Source: Thermoleophilia bacterium
GTDB lineage: Bacteria; Actinomycetota; Thermoleophilia; BMS3ABIN01
Direction: 5' to 3'
Assembly (NCBI GenBank): GCA_041658605.1
Contig: JBAZZU010000003.1
Coordinates: 23,354-87,353, forward strand
Length of the DNA: 64,000 nucleotides
The notes beneath the pieces were generated by a model, which saw only the letters and a program-made list of their open reading frames with translations, did no database searches and had not been told where the DNA came from. Made by a program: the position numbers and the translations under genes. Shown piece by piece: positions 2,866 through 57,576 of this stretch (positions are counted from its first letter, which is position 1; the number at the start of each line of letters is the position of its first letter).

Positions 2866-4508
2866 GCGACGATAACGCGGTCAACGCGGCTCAAGAGGAA
2901 CTCCTTCGACGGGCGACGATCCGCAACGTGCCGGAGACCCCGCTCTACCAGACTGCCGGTATCGGTGGCACGATCGAGAAGAGCCAGACCGCGTTCGGTG
3001 GGCTCTATCTCTCCTATGACGTGCTTCGCCTGCTACGCGAAAAGGTGCCTTCGTACAACATCATCCACTCGGTAAGGCATACGCAGATTGCGCGGATGTC
3101 GGAACAGTGGACCGGAAAACCGATTGATGTAGGTTGGGAAGTGGTCCACAAGGACCACAACCGCCAGGATGTCAAGGTCCCGGAAGGGTTTCAACGACTC
3201 ATCGATGAAGCGAGCCGCTACCTGCTCGAACCCGATCCGGGTGGTGAGGCCAGTACAACCGCGAGTTTCCTGGTTCCTCTCTGGGAAGACTTCGCCACGA
3301 TCAACCACCCATGCGCCCAGGTGCTGCGGAACCTTGCCGGACGCCCCGTTGGCATTCGCTGGGTGGACGGTGGGATCATCTGGCCCATGCTGGAGTGGAT
3401 GCGCTGGTACGAGAAGGAGAACCCCTGGCCGGGCAAGGTTCCGACCTCGTTTGAGGATCGGGTTGACGCAATCGCCAACCGAGTGAAGCGCGACCTGCAA
3501 GGGAAGCGCTGGTGCCTCGTCCGCGACGGTATCCCCCAGCGGACCTATCGAGATGACGAGTTGATCGTGAAGCCGTTTGTCAATCGAACGGACGTGCGAT
3601 GGCTTGGGTACTACCCTGGAAAGGTTGAATCCTCCCTTGAGATGGGCCTCCACGCTTTCAACGCGATCGAGTCCAACGGTGGATGGTTCACAAAGGGCGC
3701 ATGGGTGGAAACCCTGCTTGCCCTTACCGGAAACGTGAGCGACGAAGACTTCAAGCGCGTGCGCGAGGACATGCGCCTATCAACGCAGGGAGTCCAGAAG
3801 AACCAGCAGGTTCCGCTTGTGCGCTTGGGGGAGACAACGGGTGATATTGACCTGAAAACGATTCAGATCAAGAAGAACCCGCAAGAAATGGGCTTCCAGG
3901 CCTGGATATCGTTCCTGTTCTCTGCACAGGGCGCGATCTACCGGATGGACCCGAGCACGTTCAACATGAAGCCATGGGACGGCGGGTCTAACCCGTCGTT
4001 GAACGCCCCAAATCGCGAGAAAGAGATCGCACTCGCGAAAGAAGAGGGCCTCCAGGGTGACCTCGCGCACCTGAAACGCTCGTTCCTTGACCCCTTCGTC
4101 CGGGAGATTCATCCGGACCTTCGCCTGATCTGGCATTATGGCGACTTCGACCCGGAGAAAGAGAACCGCGTCAACGAGATCCGGATCCGGGTGGATACCA
4201 CAATCAACGAGATCCGCCTGGAACAGGGCAGGCGCCCGCTCGGGTTTTGCCTGACGGATGACAAATACGAAAGCGCCTCCGACGAAGAAAAGGCCAAGCA
4301 CGACGTGAACCCCTACAATCACGTTCAGAGCATGGCCATGCAAAGCGCCACGCAACAGGCCAAGGCGGTCCTACAACCTCCCGAGCCTCAACCCTACGGC
4401 GAAGACTGGCAGGAACCCGACGGAGAGCCCCAGGGCCAACCAGGAGCGCTTGAGCAGGAAGGGCAGCCGTTCCAGAAGTCGGTCCGCGTCTATGTGGAGG
4501 ACTTGTGA
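2862..4508 (+). CDS. Portal protein candidate
   Basis: 548-aa protein between terminase and MuF-like gene (canonical terminase-portal-MuF order). GTG start overlapping upstream stop. Assigned by position and size only. Confidence 0.45.
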   Translation: MSDDNAVNAAQEELLRRATIRNVPETPLYQTAGIGGTIEKSQTAFGGLYLSYDVLRLLREKVPSYNIIHSVRHTQIARMSEQWTGKPIDVGWEVVHKDHNRQDVKVPEGFQRLIDEASRYLLEPDPGGEASTTASFLVPLWEDFATINHPCAQVLRNLAGRPVGIRWVDGGIIWPMLEWMRWYEKENPWPGKVPTSFEDRVDAIANRVKRDLQGKRWCLVRDGIPQRTYRDDELIVKPFVNRTDVRWLGYYPGKVESSLEMGLHAFNAIESNGGWFTKGAWVETLLALTGNVSDEDFKRVREDMRLSTQGVQKNQQVPLVRLGETTGDIDLKTIQIKKNPQEMGFQAWISFLFSAQGAIYRMDPSTFNMKPWDGGSNPSLNAPNREKEIALAKEEGLQGDLAHLKRSFLDPFVREIHPDLRLIWHYGDFDPEKENRVNEIRIRVDTTINEIRLEQGRRPLGFCLTDDKYESASDEEKAKHDVNPYNHVQSMAMQSATQQAKAVLQPPEPQPYGEDWQEPDGEPQGQPGALEQEGQPFQKSVRVYVEDL

Positions 4509-5638: not shown

Positions 5639-6013
5639 ATGGCAACCAAGCATTTCGCGATCCGCATCATCGCCGAGACCTCCGACGACACGACCGACAC
5701 GCCGGTGATCTGGGTAGACAAGACCTTCACGCTCGACGGCTACACCGCGAAGGAAACCAAGGACCTCGTTCTTGGTCCTACCGCTGCGGATCAGATCCTC
5801 ACGATTCCCGACGCCTGCGGCATCGTCATCCTCTCCGAGGACTACCCCTTCTCGGTGCGGCTTGCGTCCGCGCAGAAGCTGGTGGGCCCGGTACTCTTCT
5901 GGTCTTCGATCGCGTCCGATACCGACGACAAGATCATCGACGTTTCCGTGCTCCTCACGGGCAACGGCACGAACGCCGCAGCCCTCAAGATCCTGGTGCT
6001 CGACCAGACCTAG
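5639..6013 (+). CDS. Hypothetical protein (124 aa)
   Basis: ORF immediately after the MuF-like gene (stop ATAG-ATG). Confidence 0.45.
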   Translation: MATKHFAIRIIAETSDDTTDTPVIWVDKTFTLDGYTAKETKDLVLGPTAADQILTIPDACGIVILSEDYPFSVRLASAQKLVGPVLFWSSIASDTDDKIIDVSVLLTGNGTNAAALKILVLDQT

Positions 6014-6064
6014 CCGCGAGATCGCGGCCTCTTACTCCCCTCCCCGAACCTCAAAGGAAAAACC

Positions 6065-8524
6065 ATGCAGTCCGCTCTGACCACCAATGAACTCAACCTC
6101 CTGAACGGCTCCGTTCCCGGTGGCCCTCTGGGCATCCGGTCCAAGGAGATTCTTCTCGGAACCCGCCTCTTCGACCTCGAAGCCGTGGTTCGCGTCGTTC
6201 TCGACGGCGACGTGCCGATCACGATCGCCAACAACACCGCCGGAGTCCTTTCCGCCGGAACCCTGGTCGCCGTGCCCACCTCCTGGGACGCTGCCAACGG
6301 CGCCCCGGATGCGGTCAAGGCGGACGCTGACAACATTGCGCTGACCGCTACCCACGTCGTGATCGCCGACATCGCCGTCGGTGAGACCGGCCTCGCCCGT
6401 GGCGCGTGGCTCCAGGAAAACATCGACACCTCGGCCTATTCCGCTGCGGACGTGGCCCTCTACCTCTCTGCCGTCGCTGGTGGCGTGGTCGAGTCCGCTC
6501 CGACCGGTGCAACCCAGTTCCAGCAGATCGTCGGTCTCGTCGGCGTCAAGAGCGCGACCCTCGGGTCCATCTTCTGGTGCCCCGGCTACGGCAAGGTCGG
6601 CAAACAGGGAACCGCCTTCCTCCAGGACCTCGCGGTCACGGCGGACAAGATCGCGCTTGCCCAGGGCCGAATCCTTCGCGGCAAGAGCGACGGATCCGGC
6701 AAGGCCGAAGCGCTCGACCTGCACGTCGCGGATACCATCCCCGTCGGAAACGGAACGGACGTGGTCGGCATGGTACTTCCCACCACGGGGATCGTCGCCA
6801 AGACGGCCGCCGGTGCCGCCTCTGGGCGAACCATCACCGCAGGCTCCCTCTCCCTCTCCGTCACGAACGGTGATGGCGTCGCGGGCAACCCCACGATCGA
6901 CACGGCGCAGGACATCCGGTCCACTGCTACGCCCACGTTCGCGGGCCTCGAAATCACTGGGGACCTTGTCGTCAAGGGTGACTCGATCATCGCCGACATC
7001 GAGCACGTCCAGATCGAAGCCAACTACATCGTCCAGAACACCGGATACAGCACGAACGTAGCGGTCACCGGCGGCCGGGTGGTCAACTACCTCCCGACGG
7101 CCACCCAGACCACCACGGTCGGTTCGGGTGTCTTCACCCCGGGCGTGCTGGCCACCTCCGATCCGACGGTCACCACGGCGGGCGCGGCAACCTTCGCTGC
7201 CTCCGACCTGGTGCTGTTCTCCGGTGCCGCCGAAGAGAAGAACAACGGGATCTTCGAAGTCCTGACCCATGCGGCCAACCTCCTCACGATCAAGTCGAAC
7301 TCCGGCCTGACTCCCGAGGTCGAAGCCTGGACTGATGGCCAGTTCATCGCCGATACCGATGTCGGCGTGACCATCACGAAGGTCAACGTCACGGTCGACC
7401 GGGTGGGCGTGGACGGCCTCGTCGAACATGGCAAGGGCTCGGCCACCCCGATCGTCTTTTCGGATACGGTTCTCAAAAGCGACCTCACCCCGACCCCAAG
7501 CACAGTCATCCCGGCGGCGGTTTCTGGTGGCGCAAGCGGCCTGCTGACCGGCGGTGACAAGGCCTCGCTCGACTCCCTGGTCACCGGTGGCGCGGGCTTC
7601 TGGAGCGACACGGCGGACGGTGCGATCGCCGTCGCTCGGTTTGTCGAGATCGACGCGGGCGGAAACACCGTCGCGGGATCGATCGGTTCGGACTCGGTGG
7701 TTGGCGCTGGCTTGAACGCTGCGCCGGTCGTCGGTACGGACCCGATCGTCGTCGGCATCGGCAAGCGGTCGCTGGTTGCGGCTGACGCAATCCTGGCTGG
7801 GCAGGAACTCAAGTGCGCCGAGGACGGGATGGCCATCTCCGCGGTCACTTCGAACAACGGGCTCGCCAGTGCAACCATCGGCGGCGGCACGGGCATCGAG
7901 TACACGAACCAACCCGCGAATGACCAGTTGACGATCGAATCCTCCGACGCGGCTGACACTGCCGTTCCGATCACGATCATCGGTACCACGTTCGGTGGTG
8001 TCGTTGTCAGTGAGGAAATCAAGAGCACCGACGGCGCGAACGGAACCACCCCGGTGGACTCCGTGAAGAACAACTGGGGCCTCATCCTGGCCTTCAAAAA
8101 GCCGGTCACGGCAGGAACGATCACGGTCAAGGAGAAGTCGGGCGGTTTGACGATCCGAGTCATTCCTGCGCTTTCGACGACTGACGCCGTGATCGCCGTA
8201 GCCGCCGGGAACCAACAGGCGTACAACAATAAGCCTGAATTCGCCGCGGATGCCGGTACCACGAAGGTGATCGGGTTCAAGCGGATCGCCACCACGGGCA
8301 CAACCGAGACCTACGAAGCGGCCACGCTCAACGGAACGGCGAAACAGAAGCCGGCCACCGCGTCCCGCCGGGTGACGGAACTCTACGTCGGCGACCTCGA
8401 AGCGGCGCGCACCCTGACGGTGACCACCACGGCCACGGCTGACGCCCAGGAGATCCGCACCGGTCGCGCCTACTCCGCTGCGGCGGCTCGCGGGGATACC
8501 ATCTCGGCGATCGTGCGCCCGTAG
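6065..8524 (+). CDS. Large Ala/Gly/Thr/Val-rich virion-structural-like protein (819 aa), function unknown
   Basis: Strong RBS AAAGGAAAAACC-ATG. Low-complexity beta-rich composition typical of fibre/decoration proteins. Followed by a strong intrinsic terminator. Confidence 0.5.
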   Translation: MQSALTTNELNLLNGSVPGGPLGIRSKEILLGTRLFDLEAVVRVVLDGDVPITIANNTAGVLSAGTLVAVPTSWDAANGAPDAVKADADNIALTATHVVIADIAVGETGLARGAWLQENIDTSAYSAADVALYLSAVAGGVVESAPTGATQFQQIVGLVGVKSATLGSIFWCPGYGKVGKQGTAFLQDLAVTADKIALAQGRILRGKSDGSGKAEALDLHVADTIPVGNGTDVVGMVLPTTGIVAKTAAGAASGRTITAGSLSLSVTNGDGVAGNPTIDTAQDIRSTATPTFAGLEITGDLVVKGDSIIADIEHVQIEANYIVQNTGYSTNVAVTGGRVVNYLPTATQTTTVGSGVFTPGVLATSDPTVTTAGAATFAASDLVLFSGAAEEKNNGIFEVLTHAANLLTIKSNSGLTPEVEAWTDGQFIADTDVGVTITKVNVTVDRVGVDGLVEHGKGSATPIVFSDTVLKSDLTPTPSTVIPAAVSGGASGLLTGGDKASLDSLVTGGAGFWSDTADGAIAVARFVEIDAGGNTVAGSIGSDSVVGAGLNAAPVVGTDPIVVGIGKRSLVAADAILAGQELKCAEDGMAISAVTSNNGLASATIGGGTGIEYTNQPANDQLTIESSDAADTAVPITIIGTTFGGVVVSEEIKSTDGANGTTPVDSVKNNWGLILAFKKPVTAGTITVKEKSGGLTIRVIPALSTTDAVIAVAAGNQQAYNNKPEFAADAGTTKVIGFKRIATTGTTETYEAATLNGTAKQKPATASRRVTELYVGDLEAARTLTVTTTATADAQEIRTGRAYSAAAARGDTISAIVRP

Positions 8525-25726: not shown

Positions 25727-26393
25727 AAAGAAGCCGCTCGATGACCTGATCGAGCAGATCGATGCCTCTGTCGTCACCTCGGCAATGCAGCCGCTGGTGG
25801 ACGGGTTCAAGGACCTTGCGAAAGCGGTCAAGGACTTCACCGACAAGGAAGACGACGAGAAGGAAGACAAGGAAGAGGAGTCCGACCCCGACATCCACGA
25901 GGACAAGGAGGACGAATCCGATCCTGACATCCACGAGGACAAGGAAGAGCCCCCGCACAAGGCCAAGGAAGACGACTCCGACGCCATGGAAAAGGCGATC
26001 GCGCTCGACGTGACCGAGTACCTTGACCGGTGGTCCAGGGATCTCCCGGCGCTCACCTCCGAAGTCAAGGCGCTCCGCAAGGACAACGCGGACCTTCGGA
26101 AGGCGGTGGCCGCTTACGCGGACCATTCGGCAGCGCTCACCAAGGCCGTGCTCTCCCTCGCCGAAGTCCGCAAGCCTGCCGAGGCCTCCCCGGCTCCCGT
26201 GGTCGCCGAAGCCGCTGGAGAGCGCTTCGAGGCTCCGGTCGTTCTGTCCGTGATTCCCATGGAGAAACTCACCAAGGCCGTGATGTCCGGCGTCATCGAC
26301 GGTCGCCACTTCGACAACTACACCTCCACCAAGCGTTTCGACCCCAACGACATCACGAACGATCGGCTTCACAAAGCCGTCTCCGCTCTCTGA
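25716..26393 (+). CDS. Scaffolding protein (acidic, repeat-containing)
   Basis: Highly acidic with tandem KEDESDPDIHEDKE repeats. Coiled-coil C-terminus. Sits between protease and MCP. Confidence 0.5.
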   Translation: MPNEKKPLDDLIEQIDASVVTSAMQPLVDGFKDLAKAVKDFTDKEDDEKEDKEEESDPDIHEDKEDESDPDIHEDKEEPPHKAKEDDSDAMEKAIALDVTEYLDRWSRDLPALTSEVKALRKDNADLRKAVAAYADHSAALTKAVLSLAEVRKPAEASPAPVVAEAAGERFEAPVVLSVIPMEKLTKAVMSGVIDGRHFDNYTSTKRFDPNDITNDRLHKAVSAL

Positions 26394-51704: not shown

Positions 51705-52093
51705 CACCACTCCGTAGAGTAAAGGAACCCGGAAGGCTGCAACGCCCACCAGGAGGCCTTCGCGTGAATCCCGTACCGGAAAGGACCATCCGGGTACGTG
51801 TTGCCCATGGCCTTCGTGATGACGATGCACTTGGACAAGTCCGCGCCCGCGTGCTCGGCATGGATGAGTTCTTCTTTTACGGTGAAGTCGTCTTCAAAGC
51901 CGACATCTACCGATTCGTCATCGGACAGTTGATCCCACTCTTCATCGTAGGTGTACGGTTCGCCCGTGTGCTCCTCGTAAACCGTGAGCACGTCTGATGC
52001 TGTTTCGGCTATGAACGTGTCCGTGCCGTTTGTGAAAAGGTGGCGCATTTTCTTGTCCTTGGGATGAAAGGTGTACCGGGTCACTCCTCGCAC
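51704..52093 (-). CDS. Hypothetical acidic protein
   Basis: Operon context. Start may be the internal Met at ~52048. Confidence 0.35.
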   Translation of the reverse strand: MRGVTRYTFHPKDKKMRHLFTNGTDTFIAETASDVLTVYEEHTGEPYTYDEEWDQLSDDESVDVGFEDDFTVKEELIHAEHAGADLSKCIVITKAMGNTYPDGPFRYGIHAKASWWALQPSGFLYSTEW

Positions 52094-52830
52094 CCCTCGA
52101 AAATGATGGATTCAAGGTGCCCTTCCAGCAGAGGGAAACTCATCCACTTGTCCGGATCCTGTCGCAACAGCCGGAGGTCAAGCCAGCAGTTGAAGCGCTC
52201 TTCCAAGTTGGCCCGGGTCAACCCCGCGCGTACTTCGGGTTCGATGAACCCCTCCGAATCGCTGGTGTCCACGGGTTCGACCACCGGCACGGGCTCCACG
52301 GTCGTCTTCTTCTTCGCGACAACGACTCTCCGTCTGACTTCGGGCGCCCGCGCGAGCTCTTCCAGCCGTCCGGCTTTCTCCGCCGCTCGATAGTGCTTGT
52401 GGCACAACCCGCCCTTGTGATCCGGAGTCGAGCAACCCTCGATCCGGCAAACTCCGGGCGTCGTGGAGTTGCCGATTTTCATCTCGACAACCGGAGCCAC
52501 GGGCGCGAACTCATCAAGTCGGTTTTCCGCGAGCGCGCGCTGGTAGTGGCGCTCACAGAGGCCCTTGCGCTTTGCCCCGAATCGGCACCCTTCGACGTTG
52601 CACCGGCCATAGACCGGATTGGAAGCCCGGTGCATTTCATCGGGGATCTTACGCATCGTGCTCTCCGGGGGTTCGCAGAGACCCGCCTTGATGACCTGCT
52701 CTCGGTGTTCTCGGCAAAGGTGGCGCGTTTCAGGGGACCGTAGAGGACCCGTGGCGTTGCGATAGATCGTGACGCGCTCGGTTCCGCCGAAAGAGGCGGT
52801 GCATCCTGTCACGTCGCAGGGGTGGGTCAT
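52081..52830 (-). CDS. Protein with three tandem CxxGC-x8-GLCxxHY zinc-ribbon repeats (HNH-associated type, no HNH core seen)
   Basis: CDVTGC...LCREH, CNVEGCRFGAKRKGLCERHYQRA, CRIEGCSTPDHKGGLCHKHYRAA. Start placed at MTHPCD to avoid overlapping the tRNA. Confidence 0.45.
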   Translation of the reverse strand: MTHPCDVTGCTASFGGTERVTIYRNATGPLRSPETRHLCREHREQVIKAGLCEPPESTMRKIPDEMHRASNPVYGRCNVEGCRFGAKRKGLCERHYQRALAENRLDEFAPVAPVVEMKIGNSTTPGVCRIEGCSTPDHKGGLCHKHYRAAEKAGRLEELARAPEVRRRVVVAKKKTTVEPVPVVEPVDTSDSEGFIEPEVRAGLTRANLEERFNCWLDLRLLRQDPDKWMSFPLLEGHLESIIFEGCEE

Positions 52831-52849
52831 GTTGGCTCCTTGAAAAGAA

Positions 52850-52921
52850 TGGACCCGGTGGGAGTCGAACCCACGACATCCTGCTTGCAAGGCAGGCGCT
52901 CTCCCGCTGAGCTACGGGCCC
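52850..52921 (-). tRNA. tRNA-Ala (anticodon UGC)
   Basis: 72-nt cloverleaf GGGCCCG-TA-GCTC-AGCGGGA-GAGC-G-CCTGC-CTTGCAA-GCAGG-ATGTC-GTGGG-TTCGACT-CCCAC-CGGGTCC-A. G3:U70 Ala identity pair. CCA not encoded. Confidence 0.85.
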
Positions 52922-52929
52922 GGTGGTGG

Positions 52930-53193
52930 TCAGATCCCCGGGTGGGGACCCGTGCGCCAGTCGAAGCCGCCGAGCACGGAGTCGAACCACTCGCCCGGGT
53001 CGGCTCCCCAGCCGTCTTCATCGTCTTCGTCGCCCGTGTCGTCGCCGTCGCCCGTGTCCTCGGTTTCGCCGGTGTCAGGATCGGGTTCGATCGGGGAATC
53101 CCATCCCGGCGGGTGGAATTCGTCCGGGATGACGCGGATCGTGGGGCCGTCGAGCGGACTGGCGGCGAGAAGGGCGAGAAGTAGGAATCTCAT
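52930..53193 (-). CDS. Secreted acidic protein (signal peptide)
   Basis: MRFLLLALLAASPLDG signal-like N-terminus. Asp/Glu/Gly-rich body. Confidence 0.4.
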   Translation of the reverse strand: MRFLLLALLAASPLDGPTIRVIPDEFHPPGWDSPIEPDPDTGETEDTGDGDDTGDEDDEDGWGADPGEWFDSVLGGFDWRTGPHPGI

Positions 53194-53351
53194 GGTTTCT
53201 CCTGTTTTGGTGGTTCAGTCTTGTGGGTAGTAACATGTTGAGCAGAAAGGGCAAGGCCTCGCGCGATTCGGGCGCGGCGGTAGAAGAATCGGAAGAGGTC
53301 AGCGAAAAGCCAGCCGAGAAGGAAACCGGCGATGAGAAGGGCGTAGTTCAT
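53190..53351 (-). CDS. Small membrane protein (53 aa)
   Basis: MNYALLIAGFLLGWLFADLFRFFY TM helix. ATG overlaps the radical-SAM stop (ATGA), preceded by the repeated AGGAGA element. Confidence 0.35.
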   Translation of the reverse strand: MNYALLIAGFLLGWLFADLFRFFYRRARIARGLALSAQHVTTHKTEPPKQEKP

Positions 53352-54193
53352 CTCTCGATCTCCTGATTGGGTTCGCCGTCCAGAGGGCCGGCCAGTTTCG
53401 CGATCAATGCCGGTCGGAACCATCGCCGTTGAAAAGCGCGCCATTCTGGTTTGAATTGCCCGCCGTCATCTCGCCAGAGCATCGCGGCGGGAAAGATCCC
53501 AGTCTCCAGGACCGCTCGAAGCCGCGTTTCTGCTTTCTCGAAGGTGTCGCTCGGAAACCCGATCAGGACGTAGCAGCGGACCCGATGGCCCGCAAAGTGC
53601 TGTCCGGCTTCCTTGAGCACCTCCGCTGCCCGCTTGACGTGATCCCAATCGTCAGGGGTGTCGTAGGCCAAGAAGATGCTTTCTGGGTGTAGTTTGACGA
53701 GAGCAGCGGCAACGTCGCGCGTTATCCGTTTCGGTTCGAGCCCGCCTGTGAATTGCGGACGTTTCGGTTGCCGAGCGAGCATGGCGAATACGTCGGTAAT
53801 GTGCCCATCGGAGCAAGCTAATAGGTTGTCGTCGAGCACGTTCCAACCATCATGAATCGAGAGTTCTCGGATTGTGCCTTCGCGCTTCGGTACAGAGCAG
53901 AACCAGCAGCGATTTGGGCACCCGCGAGACGTGATCGTGTAGCCGTGTCGGAGGTACTGGCCGGACTCGAAGTCACCTCCGGGCAGGCCAAGAGCAGGGC
54001 CGCCTACCTGGACAGGCGCAATCCTGGCCCACGAATCCGCAAGCATCCGAGCGACCGGGAGATCCCAGGTAAACGCCACCGATACCCTAACCTCTGTGAT
54101 TCCGTCTGGAATGAACAGCGGGGGATCTCCGATGAACGTCAGCGGATCGGTTGGCGTTGCTTGGGTTCGCCGTGGGAAAACGCGCGCAATCAT
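53348..54193 (-). CDS. Radical SAM protein
   Basis: GCPNRCWFCSVP gives the CxxxCxxC 4Fe-4S cluster motif. Start MIARVF overlaps the Gp37/68 stop (ATGA). C-terminal DGEPNQEI tail. Confidence 0.6.
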   Translation of the reverse strand: MIARVFPRRTQATPTDPLTFIGDPPLFIPDGITEVRVSVAFTWDLPVARMLADSWARIAPVQVGGPALGLPGGDFESGQYLRHGYTITSRGCPNRCWFCSVPKREGTIRELSIHDGWNVLDDNLLACSDGHITDVFAMLARQPKRPQFTGGLEPKRITRDVAAALVKLHPESIFLAYDTPDDWDHVKRAAEVLKEAGQHFAGHRVRCYVLIGFPSDTFEKAETRLRAVLETGIFPAAMLWRDDGGQFKPEWRAFQRRWFRPALIAKLAGPLDGEPNQEIER

Positions 54194-55152
54194 GGAGCTA
54201 TCTCCTGATTGGGTTCGCCGTCGCCAGGAAACTCCCGCCATTCCCGACCGTCGATAATTGCCCCGGTGTTGTGCTTTCCGAGGCGAGAAAGAATAGTCAC
54301 CGGGAAAGCGTCTTCATCGCGGGCCCGCATGAAGTCGATACCCATGTTCAGAACGCGCCCCTTCTTGTCCATGCAGGCATCCGTCCTGGAAATATGGGTA
54401 CTGGCCTTGCTGACCCAACGCTGATAGTTCCACATTTCATCGAATACCGGCATCCCGTTACACATATCCACCATTCCGGGCCCGTATTCCCCCCACTGTT
54501 TAAAAAAATACGGAACCCCAGCGGCCAAACACTGATCGCGCAACCCACGAACCCAATCCGGATGGGTAGGCCGCGCGTTCGGGCCCGACTCACCGCCAGC
54601 GATAACCCAATGGATCCCGTCCAGATTCAACTGGATAGGCCCAAGAAGAGGCTCGCAGGACAGGAAGCGAACGGGCGCTTTGACCTGTCGAAGGAACGGA
54701 TACCGCTCATCGAAGCGCTGTTGATTCTCGGCAGTGACCCCGGCCCAGGCGTTGATCGGCCACCAGTAGGACCGATTCCAGGCCAGCATCGCCTCGGGTC
54801 GCTTCGTCAGGAGTTGCCAGATCAGCCCGCGCTTGGTTTCCTCGATGAGTTCCCAGAGTCGTCGCCGGGCCATGACGAGTTCGGGAAGTTCCTCGAACAC
54901 GTCGCACGTCGAGCCGCAAAAGACCTTGACCCGCGTGCCTTCCTTCTCGGCCTTTCGACTCCAGGCGATCGGCTGCTTCCAGTAGGAGTCGCTGGCCATC
55001 ACCCGAGGATGATCGCCCCATTCCGCGTGGCGTCTCATGCCGGGCGGTAGGGTTTCGGCGTAGCAGTTTTTGCAGGCCTCGGAGACCTTTCGGCATCCTG
55101 ACCATGGATTGAAGGTATTTCCGGTCCACGCTATGTTGGAGTTTTCGCTCAT
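54190..55152 (-). CDS. Phage Gp37/Gp68 family protein (DUF5131)
   Basis: N-terminal IAWTGNTFNPWSGCRKVSEACKNCYAE signature. Radical-SAM partner context. C-terminal DGEPNQEI tail. Confidence 0.55.
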   Translation of the reverse strand: MSENSNIAWTGNTFNPWSGCRKVSEACKNCYAETLPPGMRRHAEWGDHPRVMASDSYWKQPIAWSRKAEKEGTRVKVFCGSTCDVFEELPELVMARRRLWELIEETKRGLIWQLLTKRPEAMLAWNRSYWWPINAWAGVTAENQQRFDERYPFLRQVKAPVRFLSCEPLLGPIQLNLDGIHWVIAGGESGPNARPTHPDWVRGLRDQCLAAGVPYFFKQWGEYGPGMVDMCNGMPVFDEMWNYQRWVSKASTHISRTDACMDKKGRVLNMGIDFMRARDEDAFPVTILSRLGKHNTGAIIDGREWREFPGDGEPNQEIAP

Positions 55153-55169
55153 TTTCTGCTCCCGTCCGA

Positions 55170-55198
55170 AGTGTAAAATCGTGAGAGTTCAAACTCAA
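55170..55198 (-). promoter_or_regulatory. Candidate sigma70-type promoter upstream of Gp37/68 gene
   Basis: TTGAGT-17 nt-TACACT on the minus strand in the 127-nt intergenic gap. Confidence 0.25.
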
Positions 55199-55279
55199 TC
55201 AGCCGGGCCAGAAGGGCGCGCGCAACAGCCGAGAGATGGATACACGTTGCGGCCTTTCTTTCGGCATAGATACGGCGAG

Positions 55280-55651
55280 TCATCCCTTCACCTCAATAAT
55301 CGCCTTGGCAATGGCGATCCCTTCGGAATCATGCCAGCCGGTGATACGTTCCGAAAAGTCCGCGACTGCCCAGCCGTTCAAGGGGTCGTAGCGGGTGGAA
55401 AGGAACGGGCGGTTTGTGAGTTCTCGGAGGCCTTGTAGTAGGGCGCCACGCGTGGCTCCATCGGAAAGGGCAGGATACCAACCGAGGGTGCTTCTGTTGA
55501 ACATGGTAGCACCTGCGCCGTCACCGTATGGGTGTGGTAGTGTGCCGGTGACTCGGACTTGGTTTCGCCCAAAGACCGCGAGCATCCCCTCCCGCCAGCA
55601 CTCCGGCCAGGCCCTAACGAGTTCTTGGGCTACTTCGGTTTCGTGGGTCAT
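55280..55651 (-). CDS. Hypothetical protein (123 aa)
   Basis: Start MTHETEV inside track ORF. ATGA-coupled to the upstream gene. Confidence 0.4.
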   Translation of the reverse strand: MTHETEVAQELVRAWPECWREGMLAVFGRNQVRVTGTLPHPYGDGAGATMFNRSTLGWYPALSDGATRGALLQGLRELTNRPFLSTRYDPLNGWAVADFSERITGWHDSEGIAIAKAIIEVKG

Positions 55652-55791
55652 GATTCCTCCTTGAATTCGAAATACCAAACCGTCTCGCAATGCGGGCATT
55701 TCCACGCGGGGCAACCTGCATAAACAATGTCCGTAAGCCACTCGGGGAGCACGTCCAGGCCGCAGGATGGACAGTGGAAAAGCGGAGTCAT
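55648..55791 (-). CDS. Small zinc-ribbon protein (47 aa)
   Basis: CPSCG...CPHCE. ATGA overlap at start. Confidence 0.35.
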   Translation of the reverse strand: MTPLFHCPSCGLDVLPEWLTDIVYAGCPAWKCPHCETVWYFEFKEES

Positions 55792-55961
55792 GGCCTCATC
55801 ACTCCGAAAAGCAAACCAAAGAGGCAGGAGCAAACCCAGAAGAGCCAAGCAGGTTCCTGGCCAAGGTGAATGTCGTACCCGCCGACGAGCCCGGCAAGAA
55901 GGCCAAGAAGAGGCCACCTTTTCCCGTAGGCGTATAGGGCGAGGGGGATTGCGAGGATCAC
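55788..55961 (-). CDS. Small membrane protein (57 aa, GTG start)
   Basis: GGAGGT RBS-GTG. VILAIPLALYAYGKRWPLLGLLAGLVGG...WLFWVCSCLFGLLFGV has two TM helices. GTGA and ATGA overlaps with neighbours. Absent from ORF track. Confidence 0.3.
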   Translation of the reverse strand: MILAIPLALYAYGKRWPLLGLLAGLVGGYDIHLGQEPAWLFWVCSCLFGLLFGVMRP

Positions 55962-57198: not shown

Positions 57199-57576
57199 CT
57201 ACTCCTTCACGATCGCACCGGATTCCCGGAGCATCCGGGCGGCGGCGGCGAGGGTGACCGTGGAACCGCTCCGATCGCATCGCAGTTCCGACTGCCCGAT
57301 GGTGGTTGGCGCGGCTTCGACGAGGTTCTTGGCCTCCATGAGACCGATGCCGGTCAACTCGCGGATCGCCTTGATGACGTTGATCTTGTTCTCGCCCCAT
57401 GAGACGAGGAGGATCGCGTCGCCGGGAATGGGCACGTCCATCTTGGAGAGAGTCGCGGTCTTCTCTGCGATGGCGCCGCGGAGTATCTCCGCTCGCGTCA
57501 ACGCATCGCGGCCGATCCGCTCCAGTTCCTCCGCTCTCGCGCGGAGTACTTCGATTTCCTGTTTCAATCGTTCCAT
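57199..57576 (-). CDS. Ribosomal protein bL12 (L7/L12) C-terminal-domain homolog
   Basis: GENKINVIKAIRELTGIGLMEAKNLVEAAP...RESGAIVKE aligns with E. coli L7/L12 CTD ([29 protein letters not shown]...EEAGAEVEVK). Strong SD AAGGAAG. Confidence 0.6.
   Translation of the reverse strand: MERLKQEIEVLRARAEELERIGRDALTRAEILRGAIAEKTATLSKMDVPIPGDAILLVSWGENKINVIKAIRELTGIGLMEAKNLVEAAPTTIGQSELRCDRSGSTVTLAAAARMLRESGAIVKE

Follow-up and report, generated by a model that had tools for sequence, protein, structure and literature searches.

A 64,000-nucleotide (nt) stretch of DNA from a Thermoleophilia bacterium assembly (contig JBAZZU010000003.1), referred to here as the window, includes a phage gene arm in which a DUF5131 (Gp37/Gp68) gene is followed by a radical-SAM gene and a 53-amino-acid (aa) open reading frame (ORF). 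The first two genes end in the same 23-nt direct repeat, here called R, which carries a Shine-Dalgarno (SD) sequence for the next gene and is translated into the residues DGEPNQEI in both proteins. The repeat is probably a duplicated gene junction, the trace of a joint at which recombination put together parts of a mosaic phage genome. Most likely it is not a new regulatory device, and belongs to a kind of junction already known in phage genomes.

The repeat and the two junctions it forms

The maximal exact direct repeat measures 23 nt (ATCTCCTGATTGGGTTCGCCGTC on the plus strand, at 53358..53380 and 54200..54222), and an exact-match search returned both copies without a mismatch. The initial annotation had reported a 22-mer present twice. 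This was right as to the number and exactness of the copies (exactly two in the window, both on the plus strand, at 53359..53380 and 54201..54222), although the coordinates given for the first copy were one base off and the repeat extends by one further nucleotide. No other exact direct repeat in the 64 kb is as long as R; a 20-nt tandem duplication comes next, and then one 16-mer, the longest dispersed repeat after R. Even with three mismatches allowed, the window holds no more than two full copies, and no inverted copy was found in it. The two copies lie 842 nt apart and bracket exactly one ORF.

Its sequence on the minus strand, which is the coding strand, is GAC GGC GAA CCC AAT CAG GAG AT, in the identical frame in both genes. 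The octapeptide that it encodes had been described as the C-terminus of both proteins. It is indeed encoded in both, but stands near rather than at the very end, because AP and a stop follow in DUF5131 and ER and a stop in the radical-SAM protein. The first copy (R1) stands at the junction between DUF5131 and the radical-SAM gene (junction 1). The second (R2) encodes the radical-SAM tail and carries the SD for the 53-aa ORF (junction 2).

As the initial annotation had stated, AGGAGA (54201..54206 and 53359..53364, minus strand) is separated at both junctions by 7 nt from an ATG that shares its TG with the upstream stop codon TGA (ATGA). This layout is the rule in the same phage gene arm, where 4-nt ATGA or GTGA overlaps occur at 18 of 29 junctions and SD-like motifs, mostly of the GGAG type, lie at -8 to -14. 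Only the 23-nt identity is special; the SD and the overlap are common to the whole arm. The proposal of a duplicated coupling cassette therefore has to be narrowed: an SD-plus-overlap junction is duplicated and does link DUF5131, the radical-SAM gene and a tiny hydrophobic ORF, but its layout is the default of the arm.

The abundance of such junctions is the one point that would favour chance, or convergence on a strong SD, as the source of the identity, given that ATGA overlaps together with GGAG-type SDs at -8 to -14 are present at most junctions of this phage. This explanation retains a negligible probability. The SD covers only 6-7 of the 23 identical bases, the next dispersed repeat is 16 nt long, and none of 100 dinucleotide-preserving shuffles of the window contained the 22-mer in two copies (0 copies in the shuffled sequence). 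The shuffles and the comparison of repeat lengths within the window together exclude a chance origin.

Close relatives and the mosaic structure of the window

The evidence that R marks a recombination joint comes from the closest relatives of the two genes, each of which carries one gene without the other. The window's DUF5131 protein shares its 90% cluster with one other member, P0241 (94% identical), which is encoded on a 1558-bp contig from the European Nucleotide Archive (L182). P0241 ends in ...FPGLDGEPNQEMDK / ...REWREFPGLDGEPNQEMDK, followed by the stop. Positions 386-1341 of L182 align to window positions 55152-54200 at 91.9% identity (blastn), and this homology starts at the A of the DUF5131 ATG and stops at the last base of R1 (54200). 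Downstream of P0241, a GTGA overlap leads into a Cys-rich gene, which is neither the radical-SAM gene nor the 53-aa ORF. L182 thus has one copy of the repeat, no radical-SAM gene and a different next gene, and its sequence ends 210 nt further on.

The single copy in L182 resembles R2 more than R1 in its surroundings. The L182 junction (1316-1352) matches window positions 53383-53347, which comprise R2 and its flank up to the stop codon, at 33 of 37 positions. It shares 26 nt with R2 (CTG plus the 23-mer) and is closer to the R2 flank than to the R1 flank; R1 lacks the CTG that precedes both R2 and the L182 copy.

For the radical-SAM protein, the closest relative (P0002, on the 1023-bp contig L004) is 84% identical in amino acids and 80% in nucleotides. 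L004 aligns to window positions 54193-53409 alone, a stretch that begins with the radical-SAM ATG and stops about 25 nt short of R2. Neither DUF5131 nor the repeat is present on L004, its radical-SAM protein ends in ...RPAIVGACQ and a stop, and a small hydrophobic ORF takes the place of DUF5131 upstream.

In the light of the L182 and L004 alignments, the window is therefore a mosaic. Its layout runs from DUF5131 with R, through 6 nt, into the radical-SAM block, a linker of about 25 nt, a second R within an L182-like DUF5131 junction, and the 53-aa ORF (Table 1). These comparisons indicate that R is native to the 3' end of DUF5131, that close relatives differ in whether the radical-SAM gene occupies this position, and that the edge of R coincides exactly with a recombination breakpoint.

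Table 1. Features of the DUF5131/radical-SAM region (window coordinates) and bracket repeats at radical-SAM loci of other lineages (contig coordinates).
Feature	Position	Strand	Remarks
DUF5131 (Gp37/Gp68), 320 aa	54190..55152	-	Tail ...REWREFPG-DGEPNQEI-AP, stop
Repeat copy 1 (R1), GACGGCGAACCCAATCAGGAGAT	54200..54222	-	Encodes DUF5131 tail; carries SD for radical-SAM gene
Predicted hairpin, CAAUCAGGAG-AUAG-CUCC(A)UGAUUG	54187..54211	-	Junction 1 only; 10 bp
Radical-SAM protein, 281 aa	53348..54193	-	CPNRCWFC; tail ...FRPALIAKLAGPL-DGEPNQEI-ER, stop; ATG overlaps DUF5131 TGA
Third, partial copy of repeat core (15/16; 13 nt exact, ACGGCGAACCCAA)	54158..54173	-	Within radical-SAM 5' coding region (PRRTQA)
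Linker, ~25 nt	53384..53408	-	Between end of L004-shared radical-SAM block and R2; blastn of L004 stops at 53409
Repeat copy 2 (R2)	53358..53383	-	23 nt identical to R1; with preceding CTG, 26 nt identical to L182 DUF5131 tail
53-aa ORF	53190..53351	-	Hydrophobic N-terminus (MNYALLIAGFLLGWLFADLF...); ATG overlaps radical-SAM TGA
87-aa ORF	52930..53193	-	Hydrophobic N-terminus, very acidic C-terminal half
tRNA-Ala(TGC)	52850..52921	-	Directly after 87-aa ORF
Bracket repeats, L024	4976/5809
Bracket repeats, L085	4967/5785
Bracket repeats, L088	170/969
Bracket repeats, L022	4977/5816

The probable course of events can be outlined. The segment (CTG)GACGGCGAACCCAATCAGGAGAT would originally have been the non-conserved 3' tail of DUF5131, holding the ribosome-binding site (RBS) for whichever gene came next. 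With the arrival of the radical-SAM gene behind DUF5131, this tail-plus-SD segment would have come to lie on both sides of the newcomer, so that each copy drives the gene after it, the radical-SAM gene in one case and the small ORF in the other. The newcomer and the next gene would thereby each keep a working SD, with the 7-nt spacing and the ATGA overlap kept at both junctions. The octapeptide would be incidental: identical DNA, translated in one frame at both gene ends, yields an unstructured tail each time. The repeat itself would date from the recombination event, which may for instance have been illegitimate or have used short homologies, and selection would then have favoured junctions that worked. 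On this account the window lineage would have gained the gene; the relative would not have lost it.

Several points weigh against this account. The comparison rests on two contigs (1.0 and 1.6 kb), neither of which spans the whole neighbourhood, and these data do not decide between gain and loss. No true empty site was found, because in L182 the single copy is followed by a gene other than the 53-aa ORF. A small ORF comes after the radical-SAM gene in L004 as well and is probably a homologue of the 53-aa ORF, so R2 may sit inside an older, conserved two-gene unit, which a simple one-step insertion that duplicates its flank does not predict. The CTG is present at R2 and in L182 and absent at R1. 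Finally, the partial third copy of the repeat core inside the radical-SAM gene is unaccounted for. It lies 48 nt downstream of R1 in a reading frame that differs from that of R1 and R2, and two synonymous differences from L004 make the stretch more repeat-like. It could reflect recombination microhomology, short-patch conversion or chance.

The same alignments bear on the reverse course, in which the two-copy state is the older one, the radical-SAM gene is excised precisely between the repeats, L182-type genomes are the deletion products, and the repeat marks a gene that some genomes have and others lack. Direct repeats of 23 nt that bracket exactly one ORF at a distance of 842 nt would suit such a process, and the single copy in L182 is flanked as R1 is on its upstream side and as R2 is on its downstream side. 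Deletion and insertion were likewise left undecided by Pope et al. for the mycobacteriophages Island3 and Brujita (PMC3029335). Excision would, however, be expected to leave the 53-aa ORF behind DUF5131; L182 instead has the Cys-rich gene, which gave no tblastn match to the window, and a DUF5131 variant ending in ...DGEPNQEIER is not present in the 90% protein cluster. Taken together, these observations make excision an unlikely origin of the L182 arrangement.

A mobile element with ends of its own was also considered. No terminal inverted repeats flank the radical-SAM gene (three short internal pairs only were found), and no transposase, integrase or homing-endonuclease Pfam families occur among the called genes within 10 kb. 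Promoters and terminators are not in excess either. Transposon, integron-cassette and homing-element ends were rejected on these grounds.

Predicted RNA structure and regulation

Translation would be coupled at both junctions, judging from their sequence. At junction 1, a predicted hairpin (-11.1 kcal/mol, z -3.67) pairs both the SD and the AUG of the radical-SAM gene, which would make translation of this gene depend on ribosomes that finish DUF5131. The hairpin uses a new 6-nt spacer, AGCTCC, which is unrelated to the flank of R2 and of the L182 copy. Local fold energies are -1.9 kcal/mol at junction 2 and -2.5 kcal/mol at the L182 junction. A fold shared by the two junctions of the window was rejected, given z-scores of -1.74 versus +0.26 over 101 nt and local energies of -11.1 versus -1.9 kcal/mol. 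Conservation of a start-site hairpin across the radical-SAM family was rejected as well: the window hairpin is the most stable among 63 radical-SAM start windows and an extreme outlier in this set. Rfam covariance models run over positions 52500-55800 with E up to 1 matched tRNA-Ala alone.

These results limit the case for R as a selected cis-acting RNA element, be it an identical site of translation initiation or an operator bound by a small RNA or a translational repressor, that sets or jointly regulates how much product is made from the radical-SAM gene and the small ORF. In its favour, the identity reaches 16 nt upstream of the SD, 26 nt are unchanged in L182 although the whole gene has diverged by 8%, a partial third copy lies downstream of R1, and the junction-1 hairpin is predicted to hide the SD and the AUG. 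On the other hand, a 26-nt window would remain unchanged by chance in about 11% of cases at 92% identity (an estimate), the 64 kb hold just the two full copies and no inverted one, the junctions lack a common fold, and Rfam yields only the tRNA. Moreover, none of the other loci searched for either family has the element. The exact 23-mer had no match in IMG/VR or GTDB genomes. In JGI metagenomes, a degenerate pattern for DNA that encodes DGEPNQEI gave 14 single matches, which is about the number expected by chance, and none of them lay at the end of a DUF5131 or radical-SAM gene. The repeat is likewise not present at other loci where DUF5131 adjoins the radical-SAM family. In none of the IMG/VR, GTDB, JGI and adjacent-pair loci surveyed did the same junction turn up. 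A regulatory role of this kind is improbable.

The shared tail

A further explanation places the selection on the protein, with DGEPNQEI as a functional acidic peptide, such as a docking motif for a shared partner or for the two enzymes themselves. Two adjacent and probably co-expressed enzymes do carry the identical octapeptide near their C-termini, and LDGEPNQE is retained in the DUF5131 relative P0241. Set against this, the octapeptide falls within the low-confidence tail (predicted local distance difference test, pLDDT, below 50) of the AlphaFold models of both proteins. Both tails lie past the conserved family cores, which end in ...LDGREWxEFP (DUF5131) and ...WRRFQRxWARPAII (radical-SAM family), each followed by a short variable tail. 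Neither EPNQE nor DGEP was found in any of the 238 other homologues listed, including the 84%-identical radical-SAM relative. The two copies also match at every synonymous site, which points to recent DNA copying and not to selection on the peptide. Sequences and models thus give no sign of a protein-level function for the shared tail, and a functional peptide is very improbable. The tail is also the sole sequence that DUF5131 and the 281-aa protein share, and paralogy of the two was rejected.

The two enzymes

Both family assignments of the initial annotation were borne out. The PF07505 match of DUF5131 spans all of the model (positions 1-243 of 243; 255 bits, gathering score 28.9, E 9e-76), and phrog_2045 is matched at 2e-82. 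Cysteines C20-x6-C27-x2-C30 are invariant in 32 DUF5131 sequences and are candidate [4Fe-4S] ligands. The protein has a partial TIM-barrel fold of the radical-SAM type, and within the radical-SAM superfamily this fold is closest to spore photoproduct lyase. RadicalSAM.org lists DUF5131 as a superfamily subgroup (Megacluster-5-2) beside spore photoproduct lyase (PMC9477430). The two differ in that DUF5131 has Cx6Cx2C and not CxxxCxxC, and they share 11% sequence identity; a PDB sequence search with DUF5131 gave no match at E<=1. As a side observation, DUF5131 also matches the PADLOC candidate defence proteins PDC-M41B (1e-57) and PDC-M30B (2e-55).

For the 281-aa protein, the PF04055 match is marginal (29.9 bits versus a cut-off of 29.5). 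The assignment is carried further by PHROG 9298 ('radical SAM domain protein', E 7e-24) and by C92-x3-C96-x2-C99 (CxxxCxxC), which is invariant in 32 homologues. The family is large, with more than 6000 database homologues at E<=0.001, of which the best 120 are about 55-60% identical. An AlphaFold2 model has a pLDDT of 85.7, with residues 272-281 below 50, and gives weak Foldseek matches to RimO, MiaB, AprD4 and LAM (lysine aminomutase). The best sequence and Foldseek matches are those to the methylthiotransferases RimO and MiaB, with which the protein shares an N-terminal alpha/beta domain followed by a radical-SAM core. Unlike them, it has neither a TRAM domain nor a second cluster motif; TM-scores are only 0.45-0.5, and PDB sequence matches are limited to about 30 residues around the Cys motif.

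Two radical-SAM-superfamily genes side by side on a mobile element recall the 'radical SAM mobile pair' A/B (NCBIfam TIGR04471 and its partner), and DUF5131 does weakly match protein A. Membership was rejected: the DUF5131 score is far under the cut-off (38.9 bits versus 355), and the 281-aa protein matches no pair model.

Association of the two families and their genomic context

The initial annotation had also described the pair as a recurrent phage module. An association between the families is real but loose. DUF5131 lies within 5 kb in 9 of 80 IMG/VR loci of the radical-SAM family, always on the same strand and upstream in eight of them. Direct adjacency is confined to three of the 80 loci (L037, L064 and L071; 0-56 nt apart). 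Seen from the other side, one of 80 IMG/VR loci of DUF5131 has a radical-SAM match, and that match is distant. The shared tail occurs in none of the nine radical-SAM loci with a nearby DUF5131. No neighbour of DUF5131 recurs in the 80 phage loci (303 clusters from 345 proteins). The description of a module thus stands only in the sense of this loose association.

The radical-SAM family, by comparison, has recurrent neighbours. C5 DNA methyltransferases are found at 15 loci, in two clusters, and a protein with a PAPS-reductase domain at 10 loci, in eight of them immediately downstream. D12 and N6/N4 DNA methyltransferases also recur beside the family (IMG/VR loci L019-L098). This context makes DNA modification or repair a hypothesis to test. 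It is the best guess for the function of both families, and DUF5131 and the radical-SAM protein probably act on DNA or nucleotides.

Repeats around other radical-SAM genes

Different direct repeats of 12-15 nt bracket the radical-SAM gene in four other lineages (L024/25, L085, L088 and L022; Table 1), and in three of these they are in register with the two start codons. In L024, the bracket repeat again yields a tail (LAKV...) that is shared with the upstream protein. Bracket repeats of at least 12 nt were found at 5 of 59 distinct radical-SAM loci, compared with 12-19 of 1110 other phage genes (p 0.001-0.006). Without the window that prompted the search, the figures are 4 of 58 (p 0.006-0.024). 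One detection method was applied to all genes and the test is post hoc; junction repeats surround about 1% of other phage genes. The enrichment is suggestive. Searches for empty sites with the L024 upstream protein and the L085 downstream protein returned the source contigs only.

A stronger proposal would be that the radical-SAM gene of about 270 aa is a single-gene cassette that has been gained repeatedly at 3' junctions, with 12-35 nt (tail and SD) copied each time. This remains doubtful. If true, it would imply a defined insertion mechanism, or strong selection for the copying of junctions, for a very abundant gene in phage DNA-methyltransferase islands.

Other arrangements were seen around radical-SAM genes. 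In L004, two small hydrophobic ORFs that flank the gene have similar 5' ends (78-100 and 962-985; TGA(C/T)CGCCACCTT(C/T)TACGCCT), which is another duplication that brackets the radical-SAM gene. In L022, a 110-aa gene is duplicated on either side of a methyltransferase-like gene and the radical-SAM gene (3867-4199 and 5885-6217). In L059, the junction sequence GGTGACGCGATGA occurs at three successive gene ends, beginning with the radical-SAM stop (5828, 6629 and 7236), with 21 nt common to two of them. In L002 (1198-6098), the gene stands between two large paralogues (653 and 384 aa, both ending in ...ALW(I/L)GREIERVW) without a Pfam match, and the locus adjoins an HNH endonuclease.

Neighbouring genes in the window

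Upstream of the DUF5131/radical-SAM pair, the phage arm has genes for ThyX, a C5 methylase and a helicase. Between the helicase and a helix-turn-helix (HTH) gene lies a homologue of ribosomal protein L7/L12 (PF00542, precomputed Pfam match; ~57199-57576 on the minus strand, L001 6618-6995). Downstream of the pair, the 53-aa ORF would be located in the membrane, given its hydrophobic N-terminus. Profile searches gave it no family match, and it has no homologue in the protein database besides itself. The 87-aa ORF and the tRNA gene follow (Table 1). Past the tRNA, a 269-aa protein (window 52081-52890, minus strand) contains the motif C..C...GLCxxHY repeatedly. In L182, the gene that follows DUF5131 (1348-1557) has a similar motif, GFCGIHR, although tblastn to the window gave no significant match. 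Elsewhere in the window (25863-25934), two tandem copies of a 36-nt unit, 83% identical and exact over 20 nt, encode an acidic repeat.

Significance and comparison with known systems

Nothing in these observations is surprising for phage genomicists. If the repeat is a duplicated junction, the window provides a base-resolved example of the swapping of a single phage gene with its expression signals kept intact: the recombination joint would lie 7 nt before the start codon, and the RBS would travel with the upstream gene. Such a reading also removes a tempting over-interpretation, namely that of a functional shared C-terminal peptide or a special coupling cassette. The surveys brought two further gains, the likeness of DUF5131 to spore photoproduct lyase and the place of the radical-SAM family among DNA methyltransferases and PAPS-reductase-like genes.

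In translationally coupled overlapping genes, the SD lies inside the upstream ORF, start and stop codons overlap as ATGA, and a hairpin that hides the SD or the AUG classically makes initiation dependent on the upstream ribosome. The window resembles these systems in its AGGAGA 7 nt before an overlapping ATG and in the predicted junction-1 hairpin over SD and AUG. It differs from a coupling device specific to this pair in that the architecture is the default of the whole gene arm, with coupling itself predicted from sequence.

Lambdoid phages offer a second parallel. As summarised by Pope et al., their boundary (linker) sequences are recombination points for the exchange of modules (Susskind & Botstein 1978; Clark et al. 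2001, cited in PMC3029335). Going by that summary, the likeness lies in short gene-boundary sequences and in mosaic blocks that begin and end at gene edges. Lambdoid linkers are shared between genomes at equivalent boundaries, whereas the window sequence occurs twice in one genome and once in one relative in the collections searched.

The closest parallel in form is Island3, in which gp68 and the upstream gp67 have 18 C-terminal residues and about 50 bp in common, and gene 68 is absent from Brujita (PMC3029335). Pope et al. (2011) read the Island3/Brujita junction as recombination between short repeats at gene boundaries, without settling on insertion or deletion, and related it to the 'short conserved boundary sequences' of lambdoid phages (PMC3029335). 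As in Island3, the window has a direct repeat at the 3' ends of adjacent genes, homology blocks break at the edges of the repeat and of the genes, and the bracketed gene, absent from a relative, duplicates the C-terminus and nucleotides of the gene upstream. The window repeat is shorter (23-26 nt and 8 residues, compared with about 50 bp and 18 residues), and its relative L182 is known from a 1.6-kb contig alone, unlike in the Island3/Brujita comparison. Furthermore, the bracketed gene of Island3 is an orphan, whereas that of the window belongs to a large conserved enzyme family, and the window repeat demonstrably carries an SD before an ATGA overlap.

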